Notes: a model not told the origin generated them from the sequence alone. Positions 24,756-59,867 are shown, counted from the stretch's first letter. The stretch is 64,000 nt of DNA from Methanomassiliicoccales archaeon (GCA_038740345.1 JAVYMA010000004.1:21978-85977), one strand, 5' to 3'. Numbers and translations: made by a program.

Positions 24756-24799
24756 GGAATATCACACTACATTTGTATGATATTCCGTACAAAGTGTAG
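24756..24799. promoter_or_regulatory. Interleaved inverted repeats upstream of amt-glnK (candidate nitrogen-regulator operator)
   Basis: Read directly. GGAATATCA (24756-24764) and TGATATTCC (24778-24786) form a perfect 9-bp inverted repeat. CTACATTTGTA (24767-24777) pairs imperfectly with TACAAAGTGTAG (24788-24799). The element lies 85-128 nt upstream of the amt start and just downstream of an AT-rich TATA-like stretch. Confidence 0.4.
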
Positions 24800-25064
24800 A
24801 TAAAATGATAATAAAAATCTTTCTATTAAGACAAATGAACACATTACAATCATTATATTAATAAAATGTCTAATGGAATCAATATGAGTATCATCGGAAT
24901 CAAATATGTTATGAGGTGGGCATTTGGTCATAATTTAGGATTCACCTCAACTTCTATGTGAGAGTTCTGGAGTCGAGTTTCTCACGGTCGAGACATTTCA
25001 GATATCACTCATTGGATTATGGCAAGCTGGTAAATACCAGGAATCAGATTAATCCCAGAGTATC

Positions 25065-25397
25065 ATGACCTCCAGAGTGAAAGTGGACATGACGGTATGT
25101 GGAAAGCAGCACATAATCGAGGTTGAGATGACTCCAGAGATGGAATTCGAAGTCAGGGCGCAAACAGATTGTAAGAACGTGCGAGAGTTCATAGATAAGT
25201 TGGGAAAGCTCAGCATCACTGATCTATCAGACAAGAAGTCCAGTAAGGTATGGGAGGTTTTCAAAAATGTGAGCATGAGCGCCAACTGCCTAGTTCCTGC
25301 GGGAGTGATGGATGCGGCCTGGATGGAGGCGGGCATGCTTTCCAAGAATAGGGCGCAGTCCTGTGGGAGGAAATGTATAATTTATAACTTCGAGTGA
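25065..25397 (+). CDS. Hypothetical protein (110 aa)
   Basis: ORF with protein-like composition and several Cys residues, lying upstream of a disulfide oxidoreductase gene. I recognise no family. Confidence 0.4.
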   Translation: MTSRVKVDMTVCGKQHIIEVEMTPEMEFEVRAQTDCKNVREFIDKLGKLSITDLSDKKSSKVWEVFKNVSMSANCLVPAGVMDAAWMEAGMLSKNRAQSCGRKCIIYNFE

Positions 25398-30491: not shown

Positions 30492-30749
30492 TCAGTCGTG
30501 GTCGTAGACCCAGTTCATCTTTTTGCCCTTGGAGACCTTCCAGACCCAATATTCCTTGCCGCCGAATTTGATGACATCATACTTCGAGCGGGGGTCTCCC
30601 CAGGCATAATATGGGGGGTTCAAGGGGTTCGCTTTGGTCACACGGATGTTGTTCTCCGTCTCATTCGCATACTTCTTCTTTATCTCATCCACGATCTCTT
30701 CGGGCACGCCGAAAGTCAGCTCAACTTCTACCATTCCCGATTCCTCCAT
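30492..30749 (-). CDS. Hypothetical protein (85 aa)
   Basis: Protein-like ORF between ABCE1 and metG with an AT-rich promoter region upstream. No family recognised. Confidence 0.45.
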   Translation of the reverse strand: MEESGMVEVELTFGVPEEIVDEIKKKYANETENNIRVTKANPLNPPYYAWGDPRSKYDVIKFGGKEYWVWKVSKGKKMNWVYDHD

Positions 30750-31016
30750 TAATGGGGCCTTTTGGGCTCCAACTGTCCCACTCTATCGTCTTCTCTAAAC
30801 TTATATTTAACGGGCTTAACAATGGATTAATTATCCATCCAAGAATCAAATTGTTAGCTTCACCAGAATTCTTGAATTTATATTTATATATAATATAGAA
30901 TTTAAAAATCAATCATCCATAGGCTTTGAGAGTTGAGAACATCGCATGCAATTCACAGCCTGTCAGACCTGCTATCAACTCTTAAATCTGAGATGCTCCA
31001 TTCGATGCCGATAAGA

Positions 31017-33900: not shown

Positions 33901-34260
33901 TCAGATCGTTATCTCTACCTTACCCACAATCTCGCTCGCTTTCTTCGCCACCTGTGAATTCTCGCTCTTCCCGTCCGTGAGGATGGCCAAGAGATATCTG
34001 GTCCCTGCGCCTATCAGAATGACATCTTTCTGCTCCATGTTCACTTGAACCTGGCGCAGGTTGTCCTTAAGCTCCGCGGAGGAGGTCTCAGCCGCCCCCA
34101 GCATGATGGCCGCCATGGCAGCAAACGTTTCCTGATGCACGCCTTTAGGCGTATCTCCGAGGATGAAGAGCCCACCTCTCGACATCAGGGATACCCCGGT
34201 GACATGCTCCAAGGATTTTATCTCTTCTAAAACATTCCTGATGTGCGCAAGCTCTCCCAT
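33901..34260 (-). CDS. Roadblock/LC7 (MglB-like) domain protein
   Basis: 119 aa. The pattern VTGVSLMSRGGLFILGD...AAMAAIMLGAAE...ILIGAGTRYLLAILTD is typical of the Roadblock/LC7 fold. Confidence 0.7.
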   Translation of the reverse strand: MGELAHIRNVLEEIKSLEHVTGVSLMSRGGLFILGDTPKGVHQETFAAMAAIMLGAAETSSAELKDNLRQVQVNMEQKDVILIGAGTRYLLAILTDGKSENSQVAKKASEIVGKVEITI

Positions 34261-34283
34261 TTCACAACCACGCTTTCTGGCCT

Positions 34284-34309
34284 ATAATTGGGTAGCATAA
34301 TTGGGTAGC
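34284..34309. repeat. Perfect tandem duplication (2 x 13 bp, ATAATTGGGTAGC)
   Basis: Read directly: 34284-34296 is identical to 34297-34309. It lies 24-49 nt upstream of the Roadblock gene ATG on the minus strand. Confidence 0.85.
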
Positions 34310-34516
34310 GCACATAAAAAACTTTTTCTTATTGGCTCTGAGTTCATTATCAGCAGGTCGGCAATGCTTGGATAGGATGGGAAAGGAATTAAAATTCATT
34401 ATTATATATCATTAAATAAAAATTTATTTAATTAAAAATTATATGGAGAGCTTCTTCCATGGTAATATTAATAATAACTTGCATCTCTACATTTCTGGCG
34501 CGGGGGAGAGAGGAAA

Positions 34517-35635
34517 TTGACCAGTCCTGCTGAGATTAAGCAACGGGCAGCCAAGCTTGAGGCAGGACTAGTGCGCTCGCTTCGTCTCCCGCTGGAGCGC
34601 AGGCGCATGGAGCGAAAGCTGATGCGACTAGCGCAGGAACACCCAAAGGAAGCCGTAGCCGTTCTGCTAAAGTTCTTGGACCATGAGAGCGAGAGCGTGT
34701 CTTCATCCGTGCGTGGGATGCTCTTTAAGATCACCGCCGAGCGTTCGGGAATGAAGGCGGTTCTGGACAACATCGTGCATTCGAATCAAGATGTGAGGCG
34801 GAATGCGGTAGCCTTCATGGCAGAGAAATTTGGCTTTCATGCCGTCACCTACGCTTCTTTCTATGAGCATACGTATCTTTTGATAGCAATGGCCAGGAAC
34901 AAGGAGATCCCGGCGAACGACATCGAGGCATTGGCGGAGCTGTCAAAGGAAACTTACATGGATGGAGAGTGCATGAAGGCACTGCAGGACATCGCCGTTT
35001 GCCTGGACCTCATAAAACAGAGACATCGTGCCTCCGATACTCTTAGGAGCTATGTTAAAGAGATATTGAGAATGGCCCCTGACCTGACAAGGATGGGCGC
35101 CTTCGACGATAGAATAGAGGAGCCGCTAAGGCGGGCTATAATCGCTACCAAATCCAGGATGGTCGATGAGACCAAGGACATTATCGACATACGAACCTTA
35201 GAGATCTCCATCAAGGAGGAGCTCAGCTCCTTGGCCCAAACCATTGGTTCATCGTTACGCGGAAGGCCAGACATGGAATATTCTAACATCGCCAGCGGGG
35301 ATTTGTTCGCTCTTTCCCGGTTGCGCAATTTCCTGGAGACTGGCACCGCTTTGGCCGTCTCGGGTAAGAGAGAGGAAGGCCTAAAAATGCTGCGAAGATA
35401 CTTGGACAACGAATTCGAGGAGTACTGGTCCCAGGTCCGGGAAAGGGTGAGGGCAGGCGATATGAGCGCAATTTTCGCTATCTATGTTATAGGGCTTTCA
35501 TGCTTAAAATTGGCTTCCTATCTAATTCCGCAGAGCTCCGAGGCGATATTCCAAAAGTATTTCAGGAAGCTGGAGCCAGAGCCGTCGATACACGTAGTGC
35601 CATGGCCTTATCCTGCGATGAGATCCCTCACCTGA
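34517..35635 (+). CDS. Hypothetical alpha-helical protein (possible N-terminal HEAT-like repeats)
   Basis: 372 aa with a TTG start (internal ATGs are possible alternatives). Helical repeat-like N-terminus (AVAVLLKFLDHESESV...NQDVRRNAVAFMAEKFG). No family recognised. Confidence 0.5.
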   Translation: MTSPAEIKQRAAKLEAGLVRSLRLPLERRRMERKLMRLAQEHPKEAVAVLLKFLDHESESVSSSVRGMLFKITAERSGMKAVLDNIVHSNQDVRRNAVAFMAEKFGFHAVTYASFYEHTYLLIAMARNKEIPANDIEALAELSKETYMDGECMKALQDIAVCLDLIKQRHRASDTLRSYVKEILRMAPDLTRMGAFDDRIEEPLRRAIIATKSRMVDETKDIIDIRTLEISIKEELSSLAQTIGSSLRGRPDMEYSNIASGDLFALSRLRNFLETGTALAVSGKREEGLKMLRRYLDNEFEEYWSQVRERVRAGDMSAIFAIYVIGLSCLKLASYLIPQSSEAIFQKYFRKLEPEPSIHVVPWPYPAMRSLT

Positions 35636-42034: not shown

Positions 42035-42038
<4 letters not shown>

Positions 42039-42736
42039 CTCCCCCCACGCTTCCAGGCCTCTATGATTTCTTTGCCTTCCAGAAAGCATAGGTGGAATCG
42101 CTCGGCATACTCTTGAGCCTTCTCCTTGCTCAAGGCGTTCCCGTCATCGCCCATCATCTCGCAGATAGTGGCCGTGGGGGTGAGGCCGGCCAGGGTGACG
42201 AGCGCTGTACAGAGTTCTGTATGTCCCTTGCGCTTGACCAGCAGCTCTTTGCTAGCGTTCAGCAGATGTACGTGGCCAGGGGAGCGGAAGTTCCTTCCGA
42301 ACTCCTCCCTAGCTTCCTCCTGGCCATTCTCCAGCGCGTACTTGGCCAAGCGAGCGAACTCGGAGGTGGTGAGGGCGCGATCCCTATCAGTGATGCCAGT
42401 GAAGGTCCTGCGGTGGTTGATGGTTATGGAGAAGGCGGATTTGGTATCATAGGGGATATCGTTAGGCGCCAGCCTTCTCAGCATAGGGTAATTGTCATAG
42501 TTGCAGGCCAGGACATCGGCCAGGAAAGGGAGCTGCAGCTTTTGCGAGATCTCGTAGGAGGAGGTGGTGCATATCAACCCTCCCGCGTCCTTTCGCATGG
42601 TACGAATGGCCTCGGGAGTGACGAACTCTGAGGCCATGACCATGTCCGTCTCCCTCTCGCGGTCGTCGAAGTCATAGACGAGCACGAAGCGCCCCTTTCT
42701 CAGGCATTCGATAGCCCTTTCCACTGCCTCCGACAT
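42035..42736 (-). CDS. ribB: 3,4-dihydroxy-2-butanone-4-phosphate synthase
   Basis: From ATG 42736: MSEAVERAIECLRKGRFVLVYDFDDRERETDMV...GHTELC. The longer track ORF (to 42919) adds a non-homologous leader. Confidence 0.9.
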
Positions 42737-42854
42737 ATCGCCACTCCGCCTCGCATCCAAAGAAATGATATTAATCGCTTTGTAGCTACTAATCCATTGG
42801 TAGTTTAATTTCACGGCCTCTTGAGTCAAGAACTCCGTCTTCAGCAGCGTGCTC

Positions 42855-43775
42855 TCACATCGAGGCCTGGGCGGCATGGTTTGCGTAACAATATACGCAA
42901 CCGTTCCCGCATGTCCCATATCCGCCTATGTCCTTGCTGAGGAGACAGCCGCATTCCTTCCTCTGGCCCGGATCCTTGCATCCCCAGCTGGCGATGAACT
43001 GGTGAAGCACAGTATCGTGAGGCGCGATCCTTTTCAACCGCTCCCCCTCGACGCAGGCCGCTTTTTCAATGCCGAAGCGTTTCAAGTCCACCTCCTCGGC
43101 ACAGGCTTGTAATCTAAGTTCCCATCTCTCATTGAGGGCCGAGATGCCTTGCGCCAGCTCTATTATCTCATCTTCACTTGGCTCTCTTATTCCTCTTTTC
43201 TCCAGCTTTCTCCTCAGTCTTCTGTATCTCTGGATATCGATGAAGCTGATGGTGAGCGTATCCGTATGATGATGCAGCATTTCTCCCACCTTCGCCACCC
43301 TTTGCAGCAAAGAATCCGCATCCAGCTCCTCGCTGAGCAGGAGAGGGTCGAAGCGCCACAGGACCCTCTCCTTGCCTATCCTCTCCGAGAGCTCTTTGAA
43401 GGTGCGGGCCCTTTGCTTCAAGGGCGGCATCCTCGGCTCATAGCCTAGGCCTTCGTAGTCGTTCACCGTGTACTGGAAATAATAGGATATGCCCATCTCA
43501 TCCAGTTCTTGCAAATGCTGGAGCAGGGGGGAGGCGTCCTTGGTCCAGAACACGATCGCTCGGACCTTGCTGAAAGAGATATAATCCGTCTTGCCGTTGA
43601 AGGGGTTGCGCCACTCCACGTATCCTCTCCTCAACCTCTCCATGAACCAATCCGAATGGCAAGAGGGTATGTCCATAGCGCGGCTGGCTGAGATGATGAG
43701 CGGGGCTATCGCTTCCACTTGCCGGCCATATTCGTCGCTCAACTTTTCCCTGCTCCATCGGTAGCCTCTTGCCAT
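42855..43775 (-). CDS. DUF1848-family protein (C-terminal Cys cluster; function unknown)
   Basis: 306 aa. ISASRAMDIPSCHSDWFMERLRRGYVEWRNPFN and the C-terminal CGCLLSKDIGGYGTCGNGCVYCYANH match my recollection of DUF1848. Confidence 0.7.
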   Translation of the reverse strand: MARGYRWSREKLSDEYGRQVEAIAPLIISASRAMDIPSCHSDWFMERLRRGYVEWRNPFNGKTDYISFSKVRAIVFWTKDASPLLQHLQELDEMGISYYFQYTVNDYEGLGYEPRMPPLKQRARTFKELSERIGKERVLWRFDPLLLSEELDADSLLQRVAKVGEMLHHHTDTLTISFIDIQRYRRLRRKLEKRGIREPSEDEIIELAQGISALNERWELRLQACAEEVDLKRFGIEKAACVEGERLKRIAPHDTVLHQFIASWGCKDPGQRKECGCLLSKDIGGYGTCGNGCVYCYANHAAQASM

Positions 43776-44131
43776 ATCCTCATCACGCTACCCTTGTGCC
43801 TTGTGACTGAAATCATTCGAGGCCTATCTCGATTATGACCAGAGATTCTATTCCTTATTCTTCTTTATTAAGTTACGAGCCATCATGAATCCGGTGTGTA
43901 ACCAGCAAACCCGGCATCGGCCAAAATACATTTTGATGGTAGTTGCCTCAGCGCAAATACGATCTTGAGGGCTCGAATCGAAGCGTCTCCCATCGCATTC
44001 TTCGGCATGTGGCAAAGTGTCTTTGTCATAATCGCTGCCTCCCCGCTAATCCTAGGGATAGGCGCTCCTGGACACGAGATCATAGCGATGCCGCGAGAAC
44101 CTCCCTGCCTTGGCTAAGGCGCTCATAAAAA

Positions 44132-47100
44132 ATGGAGGCCAGACAAATAAATATGGCTTTCATCGTGGGGGTATCCATGGGCGAGGAGCGCGTCCGCGTC
44201 GACGTCAACCAGATAGGGGAATACATACAGAGGGGGGCCTGTCCCAGGCGCTTCAAGCTCGACCTCAATTCTCGCGAGGAGGCGATGAAGCTCCCCTTCT
44301 TCGCCAGGACGCTCAACCCCTTGGACCCAGTATTGCAGAGGATGGGGAGGGAGCTGGAGGAGAGATGGGAGCGCTCCCTCCTCGAGGCAGGGATGATTAG
44401 GATCAACGATCTGGGCCATGCCCCTCTAAAAGACCAGATCTCTTGGGAGGAGTTCGTTGAGCTGGTGGAGCAGCATTGCCAAGAGGGAGGGCAGCAGTTC
44501 GGGAGGGAGGTGGCCATCACCTGCCAGAAGGGACGCTTCGAAGTACATGGGAGAATGGACTTCGTGATAGTGCTGTGGAGAGATGGACGACCGTACCTAC
44601 GTATCGTGGAGTGCAAGGCCAGCAGGAAGGACAAGACCTATCATCGCCTGCAGCTGGCGCTCTACCTGCTCATGGTGCGCTCCCTCCTGGAGAGGCGCCC
44701 CCTCCTTGTGGCAGGCAAGGAATTGACTTGCGATAGCGTAGAGGGCGTGGTGGCTAGGATGAGAGAGGCGGGAGGAGGGGTGGTGGAGGACAGGATAATG
44801 GACCTGGAGCCTTTGGACCTCTCCACAGAGATGGAGGATGCGCGCCGCCTTCTCAGCGACGGAGGCATTTTAGAACACATATCAAGCAGCGAGCTGGAAG
44901 AGCTCAGCTATCAGATCAATGCCAAGTGCGATAGCTGCGTGTTCAACGTCTGCTGCCTGCCGGAGAGCGCCAGGAGGAGGTCCATAGAGCTTCTAGGCCT
45001 GGACGTGTCCGTGACGAGCACCTTAAGGGAGAAAGGCATCCGGACCTTGGACGAGCTGGCAGCGCTGAAAGTGGACTCCCCCTTGGCCCATGAGATGCGC
45101 AGGACCCCGGGGTTCTCGCAAAACCTGGAGAACCTCATAGCTCGTGCCAGGGCCCGCCTCTCCACCCTTCCAGGCTCCAAAGAGAGAGCCTTCCAAGTGC
45201 AGAAGTTCCCTCATGCCTCGGAAGGTCAGCTCCCCCCTCATGACATAGAAGGGCGAAGGCTGGTCCGGGTTTACGTGGCCGTGGAATACGACTATATCGA
45301 GGACAGGATAGTGGCCTTGGCTGCACATGTGACCTCCAGCTGCTGGAACATATGCACACCCTTCCGCAGGAGAGCTGATGGCGGATGGGCTCCGCATCCT
45401 AAGGCCATGGAATCACCTCCTCGCACGCAGCAGTCAATGGGAGGGCAGGAGGAGAGGGAGGTTCAGGGTGAGGATGTCATCCGTCTGAAAGAGAAGCCCT
45501 GGTCAGGCAAAAGGGAGGAGGACGAAAGGGCGGAGCGGGAGCTGATGGAGCGCTTCCTCAGCGAGCTTATGATCTCCATATCAAGGGTGGCCGAAACGGA
45601 CAAGGCACCCGTCCATTTTTACTTCTGGTCCCGCTCGGACTTCGATGCCCTCCTAGGTGGATGCGCTCGATGCGGCTCGGACTTGCTCGATTCCCTCACG
45701 CATCTTCTCGGCTGCCGGGAACCGCTAGAGCAGCTGATATATTCATGCTTGGAGGAAGAGGTCCATTCCCGATACGGCACGGGATGGACCGGGAGAGGGC
45801 TGGTGGTGGCCACCTCGGTCAAGTGGTTCGGGCAGGCATATCATTGGACCAGGGAGGTGGAGGGTCGCAGGATCCGGTTGGACGACCTCTTCCGCCAGGA
45901 CCTGTTCGATTTCCGCGGCAGGCTGCGCGTCAGGCCTGATGGCGAATGGGCCAGGGAGGGCGAGCCCTTCGAGGAGCCAGAGTTCGAGATCCGCTCCCGC
46001 TTCCATGACGGTTTGCCAATCCCATATTGGCACGCAGTGTGGGGAACCTTGCCGCCAATAGGACCGGAAATGCGCCGGAATCATAGGGAGGCTCTAGAGG
46101 GCTATTCCCGTGTAAACTCCCCCAAGCTGATCCAAGAATACCTGAGGGCCAGGGTCCACGCCATGCGCTGGCTGGAGGAGAGGATAATTCCCAAGAACAG
46201 GAAGCTGAGGAAGGCCTTTTTGGATTTGAGGAACCTTTCCCGCTTCCGATTGGCAGAGCCTAATAGCATACGCGCCGCCGTGGACTTCCTGCGCCTCGAC
46301 CATCACGTGAGATTGAGCGATTGGCTGGTAAGATGCATGCAGCCAGTGCGAGACAGGGTGGCGAAGGGGGAGACGGTCCCGATAGCCAAAGGCACGATCA
46401 TGGAGGACGGCTCGGACGTCTACATCGAGGCCAAGCTCGACCTGGAGAGGTTCGGCGAGGATGGCGAGGGGTTCTGGGAGAAAAGCTTGATAGAGCAAGA
46501 GTCCTGGGTGCGCCTGACTATATACGATGGTGATGCTTCGAAGGGGCAGTCGCCGCACCAGCTTTTCTCTGAAGGATGCACCTGTAAGGTACAGGGAGTG
46601 GATGCGCGAGAGGGGAAGATCTTCCTCAAGGCCATGCGCTTCGAGCCTGACAGATATCGCCTCTTTAGCAAGATCCCTCGGGATGGTTTCGAGTTCGCTG
46701 TGCTGGACGAGAGCATCTCCGACATGGTGGCCACCAGGGTGGAGGGAAGGTTGTTGAACGAGGCATCCTCTTCTCCTTCTGTCGCGCTGTCATGGTTCGA
46801 TATCCTCAGGCCGTCCGTCCCCCCTCTCCCTTGTCCTCCAGAGGAGGAACTGGAAAAGGATAGAAGAGTGCTTGAGGGCATGATTTTCGAGGGCAAGAGA
46901 TTGGGGAAGGACCAGATAGAGGCCATTATGGAAGGTTTGGTCACGCGTGTGCACTTGCTGCTGGGCCCGCCAGGCACGGGCAAGACCACCACTTTGGCCG
47001 CCGCTACCCTGCTGAGGGCCTCGAAGCTGCCGCCAGGAGAGGTGCTGGCCTTCGCGGCCAGCACGCATGCGGCAGTCGACAGGTTGATGGAGGAGCTGAA

Positions 47101-48925
47101 TAGGCTGCTGCCTTCCTTCCTCGAGGTGTACCAGCGCGCGCACGGCGTTAGGCCTGACTTGGAGATATTGGATTGGGACGAGGCCAAATCAGCGAGAGCC
47201 TCCGCTTCCAGGTTGAACGAGCTGCGCCGGGTCAGGAAAATCATCTTGGGAGGCACGACCAATGAGGTGCTCAAGCTCTGCGGCTATATGTGCCAGCTCC
47301 CCCCCTTCAACTCCAGGGGAGAGGGCTTCACGGTGCGCAGCCTGGTAGTGGATGAGGCCAGCATGATGGTGATGCCGCACTTCCTCGCTTTGGCATCGAT
47401 CCTCAGCGCGGAGGGCTGCGCGATGCTCGCCGGCGACCACAATCAATTGTCCCCCATACTATCCCATCAATGGGAGGAGGAGGACCGCCCATACATCCAA
47501 CTATATCAGCCATACACCAGCGCCTACGACGCCGTGGCCTCTTTGTCCAGGGCAAGGGGCATAGAGCCTTCGATGATAAGACGCTCAGCCCTAGTGCTCA
47601 CCTTTCGGCTGCCATATGAGATAAGGACGCTAATTGATGATATCTATCGCAGGGACGGCGTGGAGCTGGAGGGCGCGAAGGCGATTGAGAGCAGGAGGAT
47701 CGAGAGGGATGATGACGTATTCGGCCTGCTATGGCGGCAGGGAGGCATCTTCCTCATCCTCCACTCGGAGAGTGGCTCGAAGAAGCTCAACAGGTTCGAG
47801 GCCTCTATTATCGAGGAATTGGTCAGAAGAGGTACCAACAGGCCTCCTGGGTCCTTGGCGGTGATGACACCGCATCGGGCTCAGCGCACCCTGCTGCAGT
47901 CCGTCCTGCGGCCTTATCTGACAGAGGGGGATGTGATAGACACGGTGGAGAGGTTGCAGGGGGGAGAGAGGCCTACGGTCATCGTGTCGGGAACGCAAAG
48001 CGATCCCACGGCCATAAGCAACAGCGCGGACTTCATCCTCTACCTCAACCGCACCAATGTCATCTTCTCCCGGGCCAGGGAGAGGCTGATAGTGGTATGC
48101 GCCCGCACGCTGTTGGACAGCGTGCCGGCGGACAAGGAGATGTATGAGAACGCCATGCTGTGGAAGAAGTTGAGAGCGCTCTGCAGCCGAAGACTCCTGT
48201 GGTTCCGATATCGAGGCCACGAGATGGAGGTGCTGCTGCCCGACCTGGATAACATAGAGCTAGTTGGTGCTAATCCCGAATGCGATTCATACCTCCCTAG
48301 CTTCGAACCTAAACCCACCATCACAATGCTGAATCCTGTTAATACTGGGCAAGGGCTTTTAGCCTTGGAGGGCAACACCGAACAAGTCGCCTTAGCAAAC
48401 GCGCCTGAAGCTCTTAGCGAGAAGACCTGTGTAGAAAAGGTCGAAAGGCGCAGGGCGCGCTTCGGTCCCGGACCGCCTCCTATCCCTCGCATAGTGGTGG
48501 ATGGCAGCAACCTCGCTCGCTACGCGGGATATCAGAGCTCGGCCAGCGCCAGGAACCTGATCAAGGCCTATGAGGACCTGATCTCAGAATTCGGCTTCAG
48601 GAGCGTGCATGTGGTGGTGGGCGCGGGCCTGTGGAGGTCCATGCCTAGGGAGGAGTGGGAGCAGATGACCAAGTATTTCCATGAGGAGGCATCGAAGAGA
48701 GGCCGCTCCCCCATACTCCTCCAGGCGCCAGCGGGTGTGAATGATGATGTGTTCATAATAGGATTGGCGCTGAATGACGACTGCTTGATACTGAGTAATG
48801 ACCTCTTCCGCGATCATATACAGAGGCATCCGGAATGGGAGGTGGATATCAACATGAGGTTGGTCAAGTACATGTTCGTGGAGGACAAGCTCAGGATCGA
48901 GGAGTGGCCAGATTATCAAATATGA
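44132..48925 (+). CDS. 1,597-aa multidomain nuclease-helicase-RNase fusion (Cas4-like Fe-S PD-(D/E)xK nuclease, HhH, RNase-H-like region, SF1 Upf1/Dna2-like helicase, Zc3h12a-type NYN RNase)
   Basis: A single uninterrupted ORF at host-like GC; the domain motifs are itemised in the next three features. The start could be 44132, 44153 or 44177. Confidence 0.85.
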   Translation: MEARQINMAFIVGVSMGEERVRVDVNQIGEYIQRGACPRRFKLDLNSREEAMKLPFFARTLNPLDPVLQRMGRELEERWERSLLEAGMIRINDLGHAPLKDQISWEEFVELVEQHCQEGGQQFGREVAITCQKGRFEVHGRMDFVIVLWRDGRPYLRIVECKASRKDKTYHRLQLALYLLMVRSLLERRPLLVAGKELTCDSVEGVVARMREAGGGVVEDRIMDLEPLDLSTEMEDARRLLSDGGILEHISSSELEELSYQINAKCDSCVFNVCCLPESARRRSIELLGLDVSVTSTLREKGIRTLDELAALKVDSPLAHEMRRTPGFSQNLENLIARARARLSTLPGSKERAFQVQKFPHASEGQLPPHDIEGRRLVRVYVAVEYDYIEDRIVALAAHVTSSCWNICTPFRRRADGGWAPHPKAMESPPRTQQSMGGQEEREVQGEDVIRLKEKPWSGKREEDERAERELMERFLSELMISISRVAETDKAPVHFYFWSRSDFDALLGGCARCGSDLLDSLTHLLGCREPLEQLIYSCLEEEVHSRYGTGWTGRGLVVATSVKWFGQAYHWTREVEGRRIRLDDLFRQDLFDFRGRLRVRPDGEWAREGEPFEEPEFEIRSRFHDGLPIPYWHAVWGTLPPIGPEMRRNHREALEGYSRVNSPKLIQEYLRARVHAMRWLEERIIPKNRKLRKAFLDLRNLSRFRLAEPNSIRAAVDFLRLDHHVRLSDWLVRCMQPVRDRVAKGETVPIAKGTIMEDGSDVYIEAKLDLERFGEDGEGFWEKSLIEQESWVRLTIYDGDASKGQSPHQLFSEGCTCKVQGVDAREGKIFLKAMRFEPDRYRLFSKIPRDGFEFAVLDESISDMVATRVEGRLLNEASSSPSVALSWFDILRPSVPPLPCPPEEELEKDRRVLEGMIFEGKRLGKDQIEAIMEGLVTRVHLLLGPPGTGKTTTLAAATLLRASKLPPGEVLAFAASTHAAVDRLMEELNRLLPSFLEVYQRAHGVRPDLEILDWDEAKSARASASRLNELRRVRKIILGGTTNEVLKLCGYMCQLPPFNSRGEGFTVRSLVVDEASMMVMPHFLALASILSAEGCAMLAGDHNQLSPILSHQWEEEDRPYIQLYQPYTSAYDAVASLSRARGIEPSMIRRSALVLTFRLPYEIRTLIDDIYRRDGVELEGAKAIESRRIERDDDVFGLLWRQGGIFLILHSESGSKKLNRFEASIIEELVRRGTNRPPGSLAVMTPHRAQRTLLQSVLRPYLTEGDVIDTVERLQGGERPTVIVSGTQSDPTAISNSADFILYLNRTNVIFSRARERLIVVCARTLLDSVPADKEMYENAMLWKKLRALCSRRLLWFRYRGHEMEVLLPDLDNIELVGANPECDSYLPSFEPKPTITMLNPVNTGQGLLALEGNTEQVALANAPEALSEKTCVEKVERRRARFGPGPPPIPRIVVDGSNLARYAGYQSSASARNLIKAYEDLISEFGFRSVHVVVGAGLWRSMPREEWEQMTKYFHEEASKRGRSPILLQAPAGVNDDVFIIGLALNDDCLILSNDLFRDHIQRHPEWEVDINMRLVKYMFVEDKLRIEEWPDYQI
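44177..44960 (+). other. Domain: Cas4/RecB-like PD-(D/E)xK nuclease with 4-Cys Fe-S cluster motif
   Basis: N-terminal Cys (GACPRRF, TGT at 44240), catalytic-type D (MDFVIV, GAC at 44558), E-x-K (IVECKAS, 44609-44617), QxxxY-like HRLQLALY, and C-x2-C-x5-C (CDSCVFNVCC, 44927-44956). This is the Cas4/AddB/Dna2 arrangement. Confidence 0.75.
46900..48110 (+). other. Domain: superfamily-1 (Upf1/Dna2-like, AAA_11/AAA_12) helicase core
   Basis: Walker A LLLGPPGTGKTT (46964-46987), motif II VVDEASMM (47345-47368), GDHNQLSPI, TVERLQGGERPTVIV and FSRARERLIVV. Confidence 0.8.
48485..48922 (+). other. Domain: Zc3h12a/Regnase-type NYN ribonuclease
   Basis: PRIVVDGSNLA...VNDDVFIIGLALNDDCLILSNDLFRDH...MRLVKYMFVEDKL aligns by eye with the mammalian Regnase-1 NYN core recalled from memory (RPVVIDGSNVA...[26 protein letters not shown]...RLLMYSFVNDKF). 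All the acidic catalytic positions are present. Confidence 0.75.
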
Positions 48926-49377
48926 TTATTTAAAATTAATAAATAAATAAAGTTTCAGAAGTTCGCTTGAAGAACACTCTTTTTATAACAAAATTTAAAT
49001 GTATTCGATTGGTCACGAATATATATTATTTTCATTTATAAATAACGTCCTTCTTATTTATAAGTCACAATCGAAATAAAAAAAAAGGATATGGTAATGA
49101 AAAAGTCTTTCTTTCATCCTTTTTCAGCATTCCCATCTTTTAAGTAATTTTGGGTTTTATTATGATTATTATTATAGAAGATTAATTAGAAAGAATCTAA
49201 TATTGGATTTATTCTCAAAAGTATTGATATTTTAGGGTAAAGAGAGATGGAAAATTGAAAAGATTTCATTAATTTTTTTATATTATAAAATTTGCAATTA
49301 GAAAACTTTACCAATTTATATTTCAAAATCCTATGCGAAAAGCTTAGAATAGAAAATAATTATTAGACACATCCAAA

Positions 49378-51267
49378 ATGAGACTTTATTCAGGAAGCTC
49401 TAATCAGTTCGTAGAAGATACAATACAAAATCAAATAGCAGAAAAAATGAAAAATAGTTATTTTAACTATTTTCGTTATTTTCCAACACCAAGTGAGATT
49501 AGTGCATGGAGAAATTCATTAAGGGCCATGTCTCTGGTTATTTTATCTTCAAAATTAGATGACCATGGAGTAATCCTAGAATATCAATTACCTTTGACAT
49601 CGAAAAGGTTAGATTTTTTAATATGTGGGCTTGATTCTGATTCAAAACCAAATGCTGTGATTGTAGAATTGAAGCAATGGGAAAAATGTGAGATATCTGA
49701 TGGAGAAAATGAAGTCCTTACATTCGTCGGTGGAAATAAAAGAGAGGTACTGCATCCATCAGCGCAAGTAGGTCAATATTCATTATACCTTCAAGATACC
49801 CATACTGCATTTTATGAAAATCCAACTCCGATAAATCTGAGCGCCTGTTCTTACCTTCATAATTACAGGGCAATTTCAAATGATCCTTTATTTAATAAAA
49901 AATTTTGCAATTTATTGGAAAAATATCCAATATTCACTGAAGATGATGTAAACAAATTAAAGGAATACTTAATTCCAAGATTAGAAAAAGGAGAAGGTTT
50001 GCCTGTTCTCGCTAGGATAGAAAATAGTAAATATCGTCCAAATAAAAAATTAATGGATCATGTTGGCAATCTAATCAAAGGCAAGCCAGAATATATATTG
50101 TTAGATGAACAAAAAATTGTATATGATAAAGTTCTTGCAGTCGCGAAAGAGGGTTTTCATCAATCGAGAAAAATTGTAATTATTGTAAAGGGAGGTCCTG
50201 GTACTGGAAAATCTGTTATTGCAATTAATCTGATGGCAGATTTGTTATTAAAAGGCTATAATGCACACTATGCAACAGGATCCAGAGCTTTTACAGAGAC
50301 TTTAAGGAAAATTATAGGAAAAAGAGGAAGTGTTCAATTCAGATTTTTCAATAGCTATACACAATCGGAACCGAACTCAGTAGATATTCTAATCTGCGAC
50401 GAAGCGCATCGGATAAGGAAAACAAGCAATAATTGGAGAACGCCAACATATAATAAGAGCAATATTCCGCAAATTGATGAATTATTGACAGTCGCAAAAG
50501 TTGTTGTGTTTTTTATTGATGATGCACAGGTTGTTCGACCAGATGAAGTTGGTTCCGTGGATTACATTAAAAATGCAGCCAATCGATTTAATTGTCAAAT
50601 TTTTGAATATGAACTAGAAGCTCAATTTCGTTGTGCTGGGTCAGATGCATTTGTTAATTGGGTAAACAATACTCTAGCAATAAAAAGAACTGCGAATGTT
50701 ATCTGGGAAGGGGATGAAGGATTTGACTTTAGAATCGTTGAATCACCTCAAAAGCTAGAAACTATGATTAGGGAGAAGGTATCCCAAGGTTACTCAGGAA
50801 GGATAGTTGCTGGATTTTGTTGGCCCTGGTCTTATCCGAAAGAGGATGGAACACTGGTTGACGATGTTAAGATAGGTGATTATTGCCGTCCTTGGGATGC
50901 TAGACCTGACGCAAAGAAATTATCTAAGGATATCCCCCCTGCTTCTTTATGGGCATACGATCCCAATGGGATAAATCAGATTGGTTGCGTATATACAGCC
51001 CAGGGGTTTGAATTCGATTATATAGGGGTTATTTTTGGATTAGATTTGAGATATGATTTCTCGGAGCAGAGATGGAAAGGCTACAGAGAATTTTCTTGTG
51101 ACAATGTTGTTAAACGTTCAAAAGAGAAATTCACTGATCTTGTAAAAAATACGTATAGGGTTTTATTAACACGTGGTCTAAAAGGATGCTATATATATTT
51201 TATGGATAAGCAAACAGAAAACTTTTTCAAATCAAGAATAGAAATTGAAAAGGTAGTTAACTCTTGA
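49378..51267 (+). CDS. DUF2075-family (Schlafen group-3 helicase-like) ATPase with N-terminal D...ExK nuclease-like motif
   Basis: 629 aa. RLDFLICG (D at 49612) and VIVELKQW (E-x-K at 49666-49674). Walker A GGPGTGKS (50191-50214), ICDEAHR (50392-50412), then QFRCAGS...YTAQGFEFDYIGVIFG...YRVLLTRGLKGCYIYF, typical of DUF2075. Confidence 0.8.
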   Translation: MRLYSGSSNQFVEDTIQNQIAEKMKNSYFNYFRYFPTPSEISAWRNSLRAMSLVILSSKLDDHGVILEYQLPLTSKRLDFLICGLDSDSKPNAVIVELKQWEKCEISDGENEVLTFVGGNKREVLHPSAQVGQYSLYLQDTHTAFYENPTPINLSACSYLHNYRAISNDPLFNKKFCNLLEKYPIFTEDDVNKLKEYLIPRLEKGEGLPVLARIENSKYRPNKKLMDHVGNLIKGKPEYILLDEQKIVYDKVLAVAKEGFHQSRKIVIIVKGGPGTGKSVIAINLMADLLLKGYNAHYATGSRAFTETLRKIIGKRGSVQFRFFNSYTQSEPNSVDILICDEAHRIRKTSNNWRTPTYNKSNIPQIDELLTVAKVVVFFIDDAQVVRPDEVGSVDYIKNAANRFNCQIFEYELEAQFRCAGSDAFVNWVNNTLAIKRTANVIWEGDEGFDFRIVESPQKLETMIREKVSQGYSGRIVAGFCWPWSYPKEDGTLVDDVKIGDYCRPWDARPDAKKLSKDIPPASLWAYDPNGINQIGCVYTAQGFEFDYIGVIFGLDLRYDFSEQRWKGYREFSCDNVVKRSKEKFTDLVKNTYRVLLTRGLKGCYIYFMDKQTENFFKSRIEIEKVVNS

Positions 51268-51637
51268 GATTATTTTTAAATTCATTATATTTTTTATTAC
51301 TACCTTTCGCTAATTGTATTGGATATCTTTCATCATTTAGCTTCAATTTCTTTTCTAGTTCATCGGATAAATCAAAATTATATCTATCCGAAAAACGTAA
51401 CAGAAAATAGAGCACATCTCCCAATTCCTCTCCCATTTTTTTTCGATAATAGCTGTTAGTCATCATATCCATAATTTCATTCTCTTGTTTAAATCTAAAA
51501 ATTTCTAAAAATTCAGATGCTTCTGTTATTATCCCTATTGCTAAATCTTTAGGATTGTGAAATTCATCCCAACCTCTATCATCACAAAATTTTGCTACCT
51601 TTTTCTTAGCTGTCTCAAATGTTGTCTCTGAGTCCAT
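51257..51637 (-). CDS. MazG/DCTPP1-like all-alpha nucleoside-triphosphate pyrophosphohydrolase
   Basis: About 126 aa. FCDDRGWDEFHNPKDLAIGIITEASEFLEIFRFK...GEELGDVLYFLLRFSDRYNFDL...LNDERYP...KGSNKKY fits the MazG-type NTP-PPase pattern with its two acidic metal-binding helices. Its 3' end overlaps the DUF2075 gene by 11 nt. Confidence 0.8.
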   Translation of the reverse strand: MDSETTFETAKKKVAKFCDDRGWDEFHNPKDLAIGIITEASEFLEIFRFKQENEIMDMMTNSYYRKKMGEELGDVLYFLLRFSDRYNFDLSDELEKKLKLNDERYPIQLAKGSNKKYNEFKNNLKS

Positions 51638-51793
51638 CAAAGTGATAAATATGTTTTAGATTAAAATTTGTATCATCAAAAAGTTCTATCATCTTTTAAT
51701 TAATTGATAAATTATAACAATATTAATTAATTATTATATTATTTTTTGTTTAAATTTGCAATATTTATATTTATGCACATTAATCAGAACTAG

Positions 51794-52960: not shown

Positions 52961-53923
52961 GTGCCGCATTCAGGTGCGATGGACCCTAGAAGGCTCCTAG
53001 GCAACAACGCCTCCATGATGACCTTATCCTTCATCACCGCCCTGGCACTCGGCGGCTTCCCCTCATGGTTCCCCCTCACCAACGGCAACGTGGCTATGCT
53101 GATGCTTGTCATCATGATGTCCTTCTCCCTGACATCGCTTCGCATCAGAGGGATGAGCATCAGGTCTCATTCCAAGGCCATCCTTCGAGCCACGCTGCTG
53201 TCCTTTGTCCTCTCCTCTGGCGTCACGATAGCATTGGCGCAGCTCTTCCAAGGGGACATTAGGGCAGGCTGGGTTCTCCTGGCCGCTGTTCCCTCCGCCG
53301 TGTCCGTGGTGCCTTTCACCTTCCTCATGAAGGGCGACCTCGAGCCCACCCTGATCTCCACCGCCGCTCTTTACATCATCGCCGTGGCGCTCACCCCCCT
53401 TCTCACCCTTCTTTTCCTAGGACAGGCCGTGGATGTCTTGTTGCTCGTCTTCTATGTGGCGGTCCTCATCCTCCTCCCTCTCCTCCTCTCCATAGGGATA
53501 AAAAAGCTCGACATCCCGCCCTCGGACCGGACCGCGATAATCAATGTGGCCTTCTTCATCCTGATAGTGGCGGTAGCGGGCTCGAATCGTCACGTCTTCT
53601 TCGGGGAGCCGCTACTGCTGCTTTCCTTGCTAGGAGTGGCGGTGGTGCGTATCATGGGAGTAGGGCTGGCATGGGATTGGCATTTAAGAAGGAGAGGAGC
53701 ATCTCGCGCTCAAAGGGTGCCAGAGGTCCTCTTCTCCTCTTACAAGAACACGGGGATGGCCGCCGCCTTGGCCATGAGCGTGGTGGGTCCGCAGGCGGCG
53801 GTGCCGGCAGCAGTGTGCACGGTGGTGGACATTGTTTGGCTGATATATCTCTCGAGGTTCCTCTTCTCTGACGCCAGGGTGGAGGACAAGCAGGCCCCTA
53901 TCGAGATCTCGGAAGCATCATGA
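52961..53923 (+). CDS. Membrane transporter, bile acid:Na+ symporter (BASS/SBF-like) family
   Basis: About 9-10 hydrophobic helices and a FSSYKNTGMAAALA motif. The GTG start is uncertain. Confidence 0.6.
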   Translation: MPHSGAMDPRRLLGNNASMMTLSFITALALGGFPSWFPLTNGNVAMLMLVIMMSFSLTSLRIRGMSIRSHSKAILRATLLSFVLSSGVTIALAQLFQGDIRAGWVLLAAVPSAVSVVPFTFLMKGDLEPTLISTAALYIIAVALTPLLTLLFLGQAVDVLLLVFYVAVLILLPLLLSIGIKKLDIPPSDRTAIINVAFFILIVAVAGSNRHVFFGEPLLLLSLLGVAVVRIMGVGLAWDWHLRRRGASRAQRVPEVLFSSYKNTGMAAALAMSVVGPQAAVPAAVCTVVDIVWLIYLSRFLFSDARVEDKQAPIEISEAS

Positions 53924-57317: not shown

Positions 57318-57501
57318 GCAGGATCCTAGCTTATGCTTGTCAGAATCTTGCGTTTTTCCCTTCAGTCACTTTCATGGAATCTATGCTGAATGCGTATTCG
57401 GATGATCGAAACGCGATTGGAAAAAAAGATAATGAAGAATCGCCAACCGTCTCGAAATAGGAATAAATAGTTGCTTCGACCAATCTTCAATCCAGGAGGG
57501 G

Positions 57502-57993
57502 TTGAGGATAGGCGACTCGGATGATCTTTACATGAGATATTCCATACCAATGGAGCTTTTCGAGACGTCCAAAGCGATAGAGGCCTTGAAAGGGTTTTGG
57601 CAGGACGACGTCGAGTACGACCTTGATGATTATGAGGAAAGCGTCTTCAAGGTTCATATCTTCATGTTTATGGAATATGTATATGTCTATGTCGAGGTGT
57701 GGTTCTATCTAATCACGGAAGGGCCAATCGATCCGGACATCCTGGAAAGGAATGCGCCTATCATCCGATGGCTCATAGAGCGCGGCTATTCGACAGACAA
57801 CTCGTACGATGGCGTGGTAGAATGCGTTAAAGCTATAGCCTGGAAGAAGAAATATTCTTCCAAGAGAATAGTGGCCAATATCGATAAGAAGCTCAAGCAG
57901 GAACATGAGATAGTGATGAGTAAGATCAAGGAGATGTATAAGGTCAAAGAGACGTTAGACAAGAAGACCAATGCTAAGAATAAGAACGGGTAG
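57502..57993 (+). CDS. Hypothetical protein (orphan)
   Basis: 163-aa ORF in a lower-GC patch. Start uncertain (TTG 57502 or ATG 57532). A Lys-rich tail is followed by a T7 run. No family recognised. Confidence 0.4.
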   Translation: MRIGDSDDLYMRYSIPMELFETSKAIEALKGFWQDDVEYDLDDYEESVFKVHIFMFMEYVYVYVEVWFYLITEGPIDPDILERNAPIIRWLIERGYSTDNSYDGVVECVKAIAWKKKYSSKRIVANIDKKLKQEHEIVMSKIKEMYKVKETLDKKTNAKNKNG

Positions 57994-57994
57994 A

Positions 57995-58001
57995 TTTTTT
58001 T
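57995..58001 (+). terminator. Oligo-T tract (archaeal-type terminator candidate)
   Basis: TTTTTTT begins 2 nt after the stop codon at 57991-57993. Confidence 0.4.
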
Positions 58002-58342
58002 GATAAGAAGATTAAGAAATTCGTTTTTACATCGCGGTTTCAGATTATCATCTTAAAGCGGCCGTCGAAATTGGAATCGAAACGATTTTAACCCTGGTAG
58101 ATTTAGCAGCTCGAGGGATTTTAAAAAGATTTGGCTATAACGCTCAATGATTAAAAAAATTTGAGCTCAATCCTAAACGCTTTTCCAGCTGAGCGAGCTC
58201 TGGATTTGTGAAAATTACAATTCTAGATCAAAATGCTGTGCACCAAAATAGAAAATCTTTCTCTTTTTTTCAGCTTGCAGACATGTCTTTCATTCTATGA
58301 GAAAAATTTTACATGATTTTTTAATAATAAATAAGAAAAGGT

Positions 58343-58597
58343 TTAGGGCTCATCCACCATCTCCGCTTCGCTGAAGTCGATGACCTCGTCCTCGAATATG
58401 TGGTAGATCTTATCCAGTACCTCGTCGATGTAGAGAAAGGCACCGATGATGCAAGCCAGCGCCTCATCCTCCCACCCCTCCTCGTACTTATACAGTATCT
58501 CCTCCATTCTCCAGCTCGAATGCGCAAGATCGTAGTATAGCTGATATATCAGATCCCTGGCCGCCTCAACTTTTTTCCGATCATCGCCATAAGCCAT
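58343..58597 (-). CDS. Hypothetical small acidic protein (84 aa)
   Basis: ORF rich in Asp/Glu/Tyr, in tandem with the upstream 91-aa ORF. No family recognised. Confidence 0.4.
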   Translation of the reverse strand: MAYGDDRKKVEAARDLIYQLYYDLAHSSWRMEEILYKYEEGWEDEALACIIGAFLYIDEVLDKIYHIFEDEVIDFSEAEMVDEP

Positions 58598-58640
58598 CTA
58601 GCATTCTCCTCATGATGGGAAAGCTGGCGCTGTTTCTCCT

Positions 58641-58916
58641 TCAGTTCTCATCCTCTGTCTCTAGTTCGCACTCGACGCACTCCTCGCACGTGAAATCCAC
58701 GTATTCTGCCAGGTCCTCGCTTATATCTCGGAGCGATTTCAGGGCCTTCTTCTCCACCTTCTTGATGACGTTTAGGTCCTTCTTTTCCGCGTTCTGCTCC
58801 AGCATATCTATAACGCTCTTGAGCCTCTCCACGAACTCATAGAGCTCTTCGCTCTCCGCGTCCATAGCCTCATCCAAGGCTACCAATATCCTTTCGTACA
58901 CTCCTCCGATGGTCAT
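58641..58916 (-). CDS. Hypothetical small acidic protein (91 aa) with C-terminal CxxCxxC
   Basis: Helical acidic ORF ending in FTCEECVECELETEDEN. No family recognised. Confidence 0.45.
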   Translation of the reverse strand: MTIGGVYERILVALDEAMDAESEELYEFVERLKSVIDMLEQNAEKKDLNVIKKVEKKALKSLRDISEDLAEYVDFTCEECVECELETEDEN

Positions 58917-59551
58917 TTCTCAAACCCCCAATACTAAGATTCGGGTCAAAGAAAAAAATCAGGCCAGCTTCTCCTTGGGGTTAGAAAGATTATTAGAACT
59001 TAGGCATCTCAAACCCGCGGGACAAGACATAGTCTGCATCACAATGATTCTATGGTTAAGGTTGTATTTCAACCTCTTCTCATACCGTCTTATATATATG
59101 CATACTAATATGCCAGAAATAATAGATTCGATACCTTCAATCGCCCCTATGAACGCTCTTCTTGTTCGAGATGCTTAGCCCTCCTCGATTTTAATATCGG
59201 CTTGTCGGCGCCCTTTCTCAACACGGTCTTGACTTCTAACGATTAGGCTCGCAAGGCCGAGAAAGAAGAGGCTCGAAGGACCAGTCTTAAAAATCAGAAT
59301 GCATGCTAAAAAATGCACCAAGATGTTTCAACATAGATCTATTACTCACCCCTTTTCTCTGTACGGGAACTAGCATTTCATAACTCATCCCCTCATTTGA
59401 TTCTCGTCATCTTTACGCCACCCTATTTTTTTCCATTTCTTAGGCATCTCTCTCAGCTTAAAAAAATCGAGAGTACTGAGATATAATTTTCAATCTCTCC
59501 CCTGCCAACTTTTTTATATTCCCTCCTTATTCACACGGCAGAGGTTCTGAT

Positions 59552-59701
59552 ATGGCACGCTTCAAGGAGGCCGACGCGAGGCTCCTTAACAAGATGATCT
59601 GCATGAACTGCTACGCCAGGAACGCGGCGAAGGCCACCCGCTGCAGGAAATGCGGCTATGCCAACCTCCGCCCCAAGGCGAAGGAGAGCAGGAAAGCGTA
59701 A
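59552..59701 (+). CDS. rpl40e: 50S ribosomal protein L40e
   Basis: Absent from the ORF track because it is under 60 aa. My translation is [49 protein letters not shown], the archaeal L40e zinc-ribbon pattern (C-x2-C...C-x2-C). A TATA-like TTTATATT lies at 59513-59520. Confidence 0.85.
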
Positions 59702-59867
59702 GCTCGCCTTTTACCAAGACTTTCAATGTTCCCTTTCACGCTCATTTGGCGACCTAGCGCTATCAATGCTGCGAACGGACGGATTAATATTTTATTTCCC
59801 TACGCAATGTAGTGGCGAAGTCCTGCAACAACCACCTTCAGGAGGCTAGAAGATCAAGAAGGTACTC

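Follow-up and report, generated by a model that had tools for sequence, protein, structure and literature searches.

A validated example of an antiphage nuclease-helicase is Nhi of Staphylococcus epidermidis (SERP2475), a single-gene system in which a PD-(D/E)XK nuclease domain is joined to a DUF2075 helicase of superfamily 1B (SF1B) (bioRxiv 10.1101/776245). A second 'Nhi-like' protein, unrelated in sequence, is also protective (bioRxiv 10.1101/2022.05.11.491447), and a 2026 review describes Nhi as sensing the phage single-stranded DNA-binding protein, then nicking and unwinding DNA (PMC12904381). We analysed a low-GC island, positions 48926-51793, in a 64,000-nucleotide stretch of DNA from Methanomassiliicoccales archaeon (GCA_038740345.1 JAVYMA010000004.1:21978-85977). 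This whole stretch is called the window, and all positions are counted from its first letter. The island encodes a protein built like Nhi, with a putative nuclease domain, and a small MazG-like pyrophosphohydrolase. The reading that we favour, and hold to be reasonably probable, is that a two-gene cassette was recently imported into a slot between ribB and pgi that already held a defence-type nuclease-helicase, and that the imported pair is an antiviral module.

The helicase family in question, Pfam PF09848, also contains the helicase domain of the Schlafen group 3 proteins (human SLFN11, SLFN14, SLFN5 and SLFN13), which restrict viruses and respond to replication stress. The eukaryotic Schlafens carry an N-terminal Slfn-core tRNA/RNA endoribonuclease, whereas the window protein has a PD-(D/E)XK-like domain in its place; identity between them is about 12%, and the Schlafens have no MazG partner. 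On the nucleotide side, a deoxynucleoside triphosphate (dNTP) enzyme in a conflict-type neighbourhood, as here, is found in the nucleotide-depletion systems (dCTP deaminase, dGTPase, and PUA-Calcineurin-CE-HAD with its rare MazG-like variants), and a MazG-like effector has been proposed to target nucleoside triphosphates (NTPs) in another defence family (10.64898/2026.01.15.699771). The MazG-like protein of the window differs from these systems in being a bare 126-amino-acid (aa) catalytic domain with no sensor, and in having a nuclease-helicase and not a PUA or HAD protein as its partner; nucleotide depletion by it is hypothetical.

The island genes and their products

The island is made up as follows, GC3 being the GC content at third codon positions.

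48926-49377, no strand: AT-rich left flank ('leader'), 452 bp, GC 0.217
49378-51267, plus strand: gene for a 629-aa DUF2075 / Schlafen-group-3 SF1B helicase with an N-terminal nuclease-like domain, GC 0.346, GC3 0.246
49378-50160, plus strand: putative PD-(D/E)XK nuclease domain of RecB-like motif type, residues 1-261 of the 629-aa protein, assigned from invariant motifs and the topology of an AlphaFold2 (AF2) model
51257-51267, no strand: 11 bp shared by the 3' ends of both island coding regions, which converge here, read from the sequence
51257-51640, minus strand: gene for a MazG-like all-alpha NTP pyrophosphohydrolase, DCTPP1/RS21-C6-like, GC 0.29, GC3 0.228
51641-51793, no strand: AT-rich right flank, 153 bp, GC 0.15, with the MazG-like gene and pgi starting at its two ends and diverging

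Residues 266-610 of the 629-aa protein match PF09848 (Schlafen group 3 helicase, formerly DUF2075) with an E-value of 7.6e-88, and its Walker A motif (G272-S279) and the motif D341-E342-x-H344 are invariant or nearly so in homologues. The protein is 100% identical to an NCBI entry, 'DUF2075 domain-containing protein [Methanomassiliicoccales archaeon]'. The top Foldseek matches of the full-length AF2 model (predicted local distance difference test score, pLDDT, 79.5) are SLFN11, DSH9, nsp13, SLFN14, RecD2, T4 Dda and Dna2, and these structural neighbours identify the protein as an SF1B helicase. SLFN11 is the best of them (7zel, E 1.2e-11). Dda and Dna2, together with Upf1, are also the structural neighbours reported for Nhi.

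The likeness to Nhi and Nhi-like lies in the order of the parts, an N-terminal nuclease domain followed by a DUF2075 SF1B helicase, within one polypeptide of about 600 aa. The PADLOC models of Nhi (E 4e-12) and AbiO (E 1e-12) match the helicase core, but the Nhi match is partial, aligning window residues 238-419 with positions 180-330 of a 470-position hidden Markov model (HMM), and no sequence similarity to Nhi is detectable in the nuclease domain. By these comparisons we class the protein as Nhi-type in architecture and not as a member of the Nhi family by sequence. Its host is an archaeon, unlike that of Nhi, and its subfamily is known from sequence alone. The best PADLOC match is PDC-S41, a single-gene DUF2075 candidate of similar length (657-position profile, E 4.6e-19). 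The window protein scores 66 bits against this model, its best stretch being residues 538-608, whereas true members that lie beside the cassette in two loci reach E 6e-287; it therefore belongs to a paralogous subfamily and is not a PDC-S41 member. Matches of the helicase to PHROG profiles were marginal (E > 0.002).

The N-terminal domain is likely, though not proven, to be a PD-(D/E)XK-like nuclease. Across 58 homologues, the most distant of them 27% identical, thirteen residues never vary: S47, E68, R77, D79, E97, K99, Q100, W101, H126, P127, Q130, Y134 and H161. In the AF2 model of this domain (pLDDT 84.6), a helix (38-58) is followed by three strands (64-70, 77-85 and 91-99), a second helix (127-141) and a further strand (153-160). 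D79 lies on strand 2, E97-x-K99 on strand 3 and Q130-xxx-Y134 on the next helix of this alpha-beta-beta-beta-alpha-beta unit. A D…ExK signature with QxxxY on such a unit is the motif pattern of RecB/Cas4-type PD-(D/E)XK nucleases. When the domain was aligned by hhalign to the Cas4-like domain of a giant helicase encoded next to the island, D and ExK fell in register, with an E-value of 0.18 that is not significant. NERD was matched weakly, in only one of the homologues scanned. A search with this domain alone gave 1,930 clusters (50% identity level). Of the 150 best matches listed, the longer ones nearly always have it at the N-terminus, in proteins of about 620-640 or 790-815 aa.

The MazG-like gene could start at TTG 51640, giving 127 aa, or more probably at ATG 51637, giving 126 aa. 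Its product matches Pfam PF12643 with 42.2 bits (cut-off 27) and PHROG profiles at 1.6e-9. It also aligns end to end and without gaps, over residues 4-121, with dCTP pyrophosphatase 1 of mouse and human (PDB 6sqw and 2a3q, E 2e-18). The ExxE and ExxD pairs and the W…FH motif of DCTPP1/RS21-C6 (XTP3-TPA) are kept: in the mouse enzyme the positions aligned with E40/E43 and E72/D75 are also acidic, namely E63, E66, E95 and D98, which we take to be the Mg ligands of RS21-C6. The predicted substrate is dCTP or a 5-modified dCTP. Identity to DCTPP1 is about 30-35%, and the mammalian enzyme has no genomic coupling to a nuclease-helicase.

The island in the ribB-pgi slot

The preliminary description of this DNA had noticed, from the sequence alone, an abrupt low-GC island of about 2.9 kb between a giant helicase gene and pgi. 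The GC profile bears this out. The segment 48926-51793 has a GC content of 0.308, compared to 0.578 in the 3 kb to its left and 0.588 in the 3 kb to its right. In 300-bp sliding windows, GC was 0.55-0.62 until about 48.8 kb, 0.23-0.42 over 48.95-51.65 kb and 0.57-0.61 from 51.8 kb. The mean over the 51 windows inside the island was 0.320, while the 1212 windows outside it averaged 0.540 (standard deviation 0.051), none of them falling as low as the inside mean. At the left edge, GC over 30 bp drops from 0.40 at the end of the helicase gene (48896-48925) to 0.03 (48926-48955). At the right edge it is 0.23 immediately 5' of the pgi ATG, 0.40-0.47 over the initial 90 bp of that gene and 0.73 thereafter, so that the recovery, said earlier to fall exactly on the pgi start codon, takes place within about 90 bp of it.

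The GC3 of the two island genes, 0.246 and 0.228, compares with 0.655 ± 0.087 in the 53 other open reading frames (ORFs) of the window, where the minimum is 0.379, and the codons AAA, AAT, TTT, TTA and ATT are enriched 4-8 times. The foreign codon usage suspected earlier is thus present in both genes. Their convergent arrangement also stands, with the coding ends now seen to overlap, and so does the 153-bp AT-rich right flank. The left flank does have the length of 452 bp first given and is AT-rich, but at its measured GC it is not 'almost pure AT'. The lowest GC reached in the host's own long intergenic patches is 0.32-0.40, so both island flanks lie below the native range. These patches are the inter-ORF gaps at 24600-25150, 30600-31150 and 34150-34600 (GC 0.32-0.41), which appear to be native long intergenic regions of the host and served as the baseline for the flanks.

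An RNA or regulatory element in the 452-bp leader was considered and rejected. There was no Rfam match below E 0.19, the fold z-scores (-0.16 and -0.82) gave no signal of RNA structure, sigma-70-like or promoter-like and terminator-like matches occurred at the level of shuffled sequence, and neither blastn nor tblastx found any likeness to the DNA upstream of a homologous locus.

Whether the surroundings of the island are conserved can be seen in four related Methanomassiliicoccales contigs (L017, L018, L019 and L020), whose Pgi proteins are 57-63% identical to that of the window. In all four, ribB and pgi are adjacent and diverge from a spacer of 99-158 bp, which holds neither the cassette nor the giant helicase. 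The relatives' genes for PAPS-reductase, an aminotransferase, ribH, a second DMRL-synthase, ribL and ribB follow each other on one strand; then come the spacer and pgi, glyA (SHMT), ttuA and rfc. The backbone of the window, FtsZ … ribH-ribL-ribB | pgi-glyA-ttuA-rfc, matches this order with two additions. The first is about 8.9 kb between ribB (42035-42919) and pgi (51794), and holds a DUF1848 gene, the giant helicase gene and the low-GC cassette. The second is a gene for a membrane protein like those of the sodium/bile-acid symporter family (SBF), at 52961-53923 between pgi and glyA and with host-like GC. The related contigs have pgi and glyA adjacent, 90-100 bp apart, which makes the SBF-like gene a second small insertion in the conserved block.

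The part of the slot to the left of the island contains the following.

42855-48925, no strand: older part of the slot with host-like GC, comprising the DUF1848 gene and the 1597-aa helicase gene, without a counterpart between ribB and pgi in the relatives
42855-43775, minus strand: DUF1848 gene (Pfam), GC3 0.69
44132-48925, plus strand: gene for a 1597-aa protein with a Cas4-like PD-(D/E)XK domain, an SF1 helicase and a C-terminal NYN RNase (Pfam), GC3 0.74

The island therefore does lie where the preliminary description placed it, but its left neighbours are themselves extra at this site. Since the giant helicase and DUF1848 are absent from the slot in the relatives, the giant helicase gene has no constant association with pgi, and the adjacency that the synteny comparison was to look for elsewhere was not found. 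The 8.9-kb region is a variable slot that has been filled at least twice and has at least two compositional layers. The giant helicase has partial PADLOC matches to MkoA, DpdJ and Cas4. NYN-fused relatives of it, 42-49% identical, occur in other Methanomassiliicoccales, in one of which the homologue (P0243) lies at a different locus. Its bacterial homologues, annotated 'bifunctional RecB family nuclease/DEAD box helicase', are without the NYN domain.

The low-GC block might instead be an assembly chimera, the source being a 91,864-bp contig of a metagenome-assembled genome (MAG) and the DNA at the junctions being AT-rich and of low complexity. We find this hardly credible, because the contig is collinear on both sides with the relatives' ribB … pgi-glyA-ttuA-rfc backbone and the genes to either side of the block are intact. 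Two false joins would have to be assumed, one exactly at a stop codon and the other just before a start codon.

No convincing alignment was obtained between the native ribB-pgi spacer and the window DNA beside pgi or upstream of the giant helicase. The relatives' spacers have GC contents of 0.39-0.46 and could not be aligned to the 153-bp right flank. A short match, 'GATGGTAGTTGC' at about 43.9 kb, was considered as a remnant of the native spacer and judged to be due to chance. The pgi-adjacent DNA thus not being alignable to the native spacer, pgi is probably now expressed from a promoter within the imported right flank, a stretch that would have to carry the promoters of both pgi and the MazG-like gene. 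It holds a TATA-like TTTATATT at 51764-51771, centred about 26 bp 5' of the pgi ATG, though such a match comes cheaply in DNA as AT-rich as this. The native spacers (L017:5161-5259, L020:4681-4783 and L018:7843-8000) share a partly palindromic motif, TTTGTAGTTACCA…TGGTAGTAGC / TTTGTAACTACAAT…TTAGTAGTT, and a regulator of riboflavin or sugar-phosphate genes may bind there; the motif was not found beside the window pgi.

That 48926-51793 is a horizontally acquired foreign island, as proposed in the preliminary description, is supported because its composition (GC and GC3) deviates and because the ribB-pgi spacer of the four related contigs is without the cassette. In other genomes the cassette is found at unrelated sites with no common flanking synteny and mostly with host-like GC, and not as the same two genes with the same composition at this locus. 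The difference in GC between genes and flanks is -0.193 for the window copy, the largest deficit among comparable loci; the next are -0.128 and -0.106, and most loci lie within ±0.07 of their flanks.

The protein searches suggested earlier as a way to identify the donor did return the closest relatives, which are 77%, 74% and 73% identical. All of them come from GC-rich Methanomassiliicoccales-type contigs, and no donor can be named. A neighbour-joining tree nests the window protein in a clade of such contigs that have a convergent MazG-like gene, and the other members of this clade have GC3 values of 0.53-0.80. The best match at the DNA level is to a low-GC archaeal genome (L004, 69%), which reflects shared composition and not closest ancestry. 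Since the rest of its clade is GC-rich, the window copy is expected to derive from an unsampled low-GC lineage or a mobile element, probably archaeal, and we consider that this was probably a low-GC lineage or an AT-rich mobile element within or near Methanomassiliicoccales. The copy would then represent an archaeal cassette lineage that evolved for long in an AT-rich genome or element outside the databases and arrived recently, with no amelioration.

How it arrived has left little trace. Domain scans of the two island genes, the scanned neighbours and the rest of the ribB-pgi insert found no integrase or transposase, in agreement with the preliminary description. No tRNA lies near the island, the only tRNAs of the window being at 17 and 20 kb. 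A search for flanking repeats or att sites gave only short AT-rich matches, the best of which is the 11-mer AAATTTGCAAT at 49288 and 51752, 80 bp 5' of the DUF2075 gene and 32 bp 5' of pgi. It was not accepted as a target-site duplication because chance alone should, on a rough estimate, yield about 0.2 matches of this kind. The simplest guess for the route is recombination into the intergenic slot without a dedicated recombinase.

These observations bear also on the idea that the island is what remains of an integrated virus or plasmid, both enzymes having served the replication and nucleotide metabolism of the element and the rest having been deleted. A GC content below that of the host is typical of mobile elements, homologues are found on IMG/VR viral contigs and plasmids, MazG-like pyrophosphatases are common in phages (the PHROG matches above), and the flanks are AT-rich, non-coding and without recognisable function. 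Yet the slot contains no integrase, capsid, replication-initiator or other element gene, the locus has neither att-like repeats nor a tRNA, the PHROG matches of the helicase are marginal, and this pair of genes turns up by itself, at unrelated places in the chromosome, across many phyla. We regard a decayed element as distinctly improbable.

The nuclease-helicase and MazG-like pair in other genomes

Loci related to the island were gathered from genomes, metagenomes, IMG/VR and plasmids, and 26 of them were near-full-length, non-duplicate and had room on both sides. Nhi is a single-gene system, whereas 18 of these 26 loci of the subfamily studied here have a MazG-like gene no more than 150 bp from the DUF2075 gene. 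The pairing holds down to DUF2075 identities of 24-40% and is also seen on IMG/VR contigs. In the same-strand form, the MazG-like gene is immediately upstream of the DUF2075 gene. Seven loci have a 4-nt overlap between the MazG-like stop and the DUF2075 start and three a 1-nt overlap, and in most of the remaining same-strand loci the MazG-like gene ends 1-8 nt ahead of that start. Such overlapping or abutting stops and starts are the signature of translational coupling. In one 487-aa protein (P0473), a MazG-like domain (29-83) is fused upstream of the nuclease-like domain (213-377). The fusion may be natural, or it may come from a frameshift that reads through an overlapping stop and start, and on either interpretation it points to a tight abutment. 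The convergent form, with the MazG-like gene downstream, is that of the window and its closest relatives (L008, L002, L005, L021, L022 and L032); in the convergent loci other than the window the 3' ends are about 10-25 bp apart, compared to the overlap in the window. The two island genes are thus a conserved module and not a random pair.

Bacteria and archaea carry the pair, and so do plasmids and viral contigs, one of them labelled as a giant-virus MAG contig. The best 120 DUF2075 clusters are 66-77% identical to the window protein, and the few of them that are named by source are of archaeal and bacterial origin, from Methanomassiliicoccales, Euryarchaeota, Omnitrophica, Aquicultorales and Oleimmundimicrobium; related loci occur in MAGs labelled Bathyarchaeota, Omnitrophota, Planctomycetia and Syntrophales. 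On the giant-virus-labelled contig (L026, IMGVR_UViG_GVMAG-S-1041346-124_000001), a MazG-like gene precedes a DUF2075 gene, the products being 51% and 40% identical to the window proteins. On a mobilisable plasmid of Hymenobacter canadensis (L030, NZ_CP114769.1, 17064-26950), two tandem DUF2075 paralogues have a site-specific DNA methyltransferase, DUF4747 and fragments of transposases as neighbours; one paralogue truly belongs to PADLOC PDC-S41, and the other shares 51% identity with the window protein.

Among the 120 closest clusters, about 50 have an extra C-terminal S24 (LexA/UmuD-like) peptidase domain, for example at residues 656-790 of P0010; in bacteria this addition is frequent. Examples are P0010, P0368 and P0411 (about 800 aa) and the loci L007, L009, L010, L015, L036, L041 and L044; P0104 has a C-terminal HTH_3 in place of S24. 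The archaeal clade of the window is without the S24 domain. The idea that a copy has a MazG partner or an S24 fusion, but never both, was rejected because S24-fused copies also have a MazG-like gene. The S24 domain responds to single-stranded DNA (ssDNA) bound by RecA, i.e. to DNA damage, and its fusion here suggests a self-cleavage switch that would be triggered by DNA damage or RecA.

A response to DNA damage would also suit an accessory, mobile DNA-maintenance module, in which the DCTPP1-like enzyme would house-clean non-canonical dNTPs and the nuclease-helicase would process damaged or stalled replication intermediates. DCTPP1/RS21-C6 enzymes sanitise the nucleotide pool, and the MazG-like protein matches them at E 2e-18. 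The structural neighbours of the helicase include Dna2 and RecD2, and housekeeping or repair genes lie on the flanks of several loci, such as HhH-GPD and topoisomerases in L004. A patchy spread over loci that differ between genomes, together with occurrence on plasmids and viral contigs, is, however, typical of conflict systems and not of core repair, and the architecture is that of a validated defence protein. Damage sensing is moreover no privilege of repair, as it triggers defence nucleases such as Hachiman (PMC12278908). A role in DNA maintenance is, in our view, unlikely.

We therefore return to the antiviral reading of the imported cassette. Nuclease activity is predicted, as is a physical or functional cooperation of the two proteins, and a defence role is proposed by analogy, because the architecture is Nhi-like. 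The helicase would load on foreign DNA that is being replicated or is damaged, which the nuclease domain would then nick or degrade, as in Nhi. The MazG-like enzyme would hydrolyse dCTP or 5-modified dCTP, and this would either starve viral replication or block the building of modified, nuclease-resistant viral DNA. The neighbours of the cassette at some loci are compatible with such a role. In the window it abuts the Cas4/SF1/NYN giant helicase with its MkoA, DpdJ and Cas4 matches, and elsewhere it adjoins Vsr with a DNA methylase, a methyltransferase with a second DUF2075 gene, or matches to DRT, PDC-S02 and MTase II.

Several findings weigh against this reading. Residues 1-261 have no Pfam match at E ≤ 10, no PHROG match and no PDB profile match, and the model of the domain has no Foldseek match in the PDB below E 0.1. 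The PADLOC matches of the 629-aa protein are all partial, that to PDC-S41 amounting to 66 bits and those to AbiO and Nhi covering the helicase core only. The MazG-like gene is missing in 8 of the 26 loci, so the helicase can stand alone, and in the window the two genes are convergent and hence form no operon. Several cassette loci lie among housekeeping genes. The defence neighbours were collected in a single PADLOC scan of 150 neighbouring ORFs, which gave scattered strong matches, had no control set and supports no claim of enrichment. As to the import, the genome, metagenome and protein searches found nothing closer than 77% and no low-GC member of the clade. The word 'recent' reflects the un-ameliorated composition, and the nearest hosts are 57-63% identical in Pgi; with relatives this distant, at the genus or family level, the time of insertion is only loosely bounded.

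A broader proposal can be put forward tentatively, and we rate it clearly below the reading just given: a DCTPP1-type pyrophosphatase with a PD-(D/E)XK-DUF2075 nuclease-helicase may form an undescribed and very widespread two-component antiviral system. It would couple manipulation of the pool of dCTP or modified dCTP to nuclease-helicase attack on foreign DNA. In bacteria, the C-terminal S24 domain would add a switch triggered by RecA-ssDNA, and the archaeal clade of the window would have dropped S24 and inverted the MazG-like gene. In the literature searched, which covers few of the subscription journals, no paper on DUF2075 with MazG or on prokaryotic Schlafen with MazG was found; this silence is suggestive only.

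Other regions of the window and the meaning of the cassette

The window as a whole falls into two compositional regimes. ORFs before about 35.6 kb have a GC content of about 0.52 and a GC3 of about 0.62, and those from FtsZ (35787) to RFC (57317) have a GC content of about 0.585 and a GC3 of 0.70-0.84. Beyond RFC, the 2.4 kb at 57400-59850 has a lower GC of 0.44-0.48, with 300-bp minima of 0.34-0.40. The only ORF of at least 110 aa in it encodes 163 aa (57502-57993). Two small, very acidic ORFs lie on the minus strand (58343-58597, 84 aa; 58641-58916, 91 aa), and no Rfam match was found in this region. It may be another small foreign patch.

As a case of horizontal transfer, the island is routine but unusually clean: it is un-ameliorated, with a GC3 of 0.25 in a host at about 0.75, sits between two core genes and has no recombinase. 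The slot between these core genes has collected nuclease-helicases twice. The wider point is the cassette itself, in which a highly conserved nuclease-helicase of the Nhi/Schlafen type, 67-77% identical across phyla, is paired with a dCTP-pyrophosphatase-like enzyme, in many cases through stops and starts that overlap. If the pair is a defence system, it would add a nucleotide-pool enzyme to an Nhi-type mechanism, and would be a prokaryotic parallel to the way in which Schlafen helicases are tied to replication stress and dNTP metabolism in animals. The viruses of Methanomassiliicoccales are poorly known, and the cassette would then be a candidate immune gene for this group of archaea.

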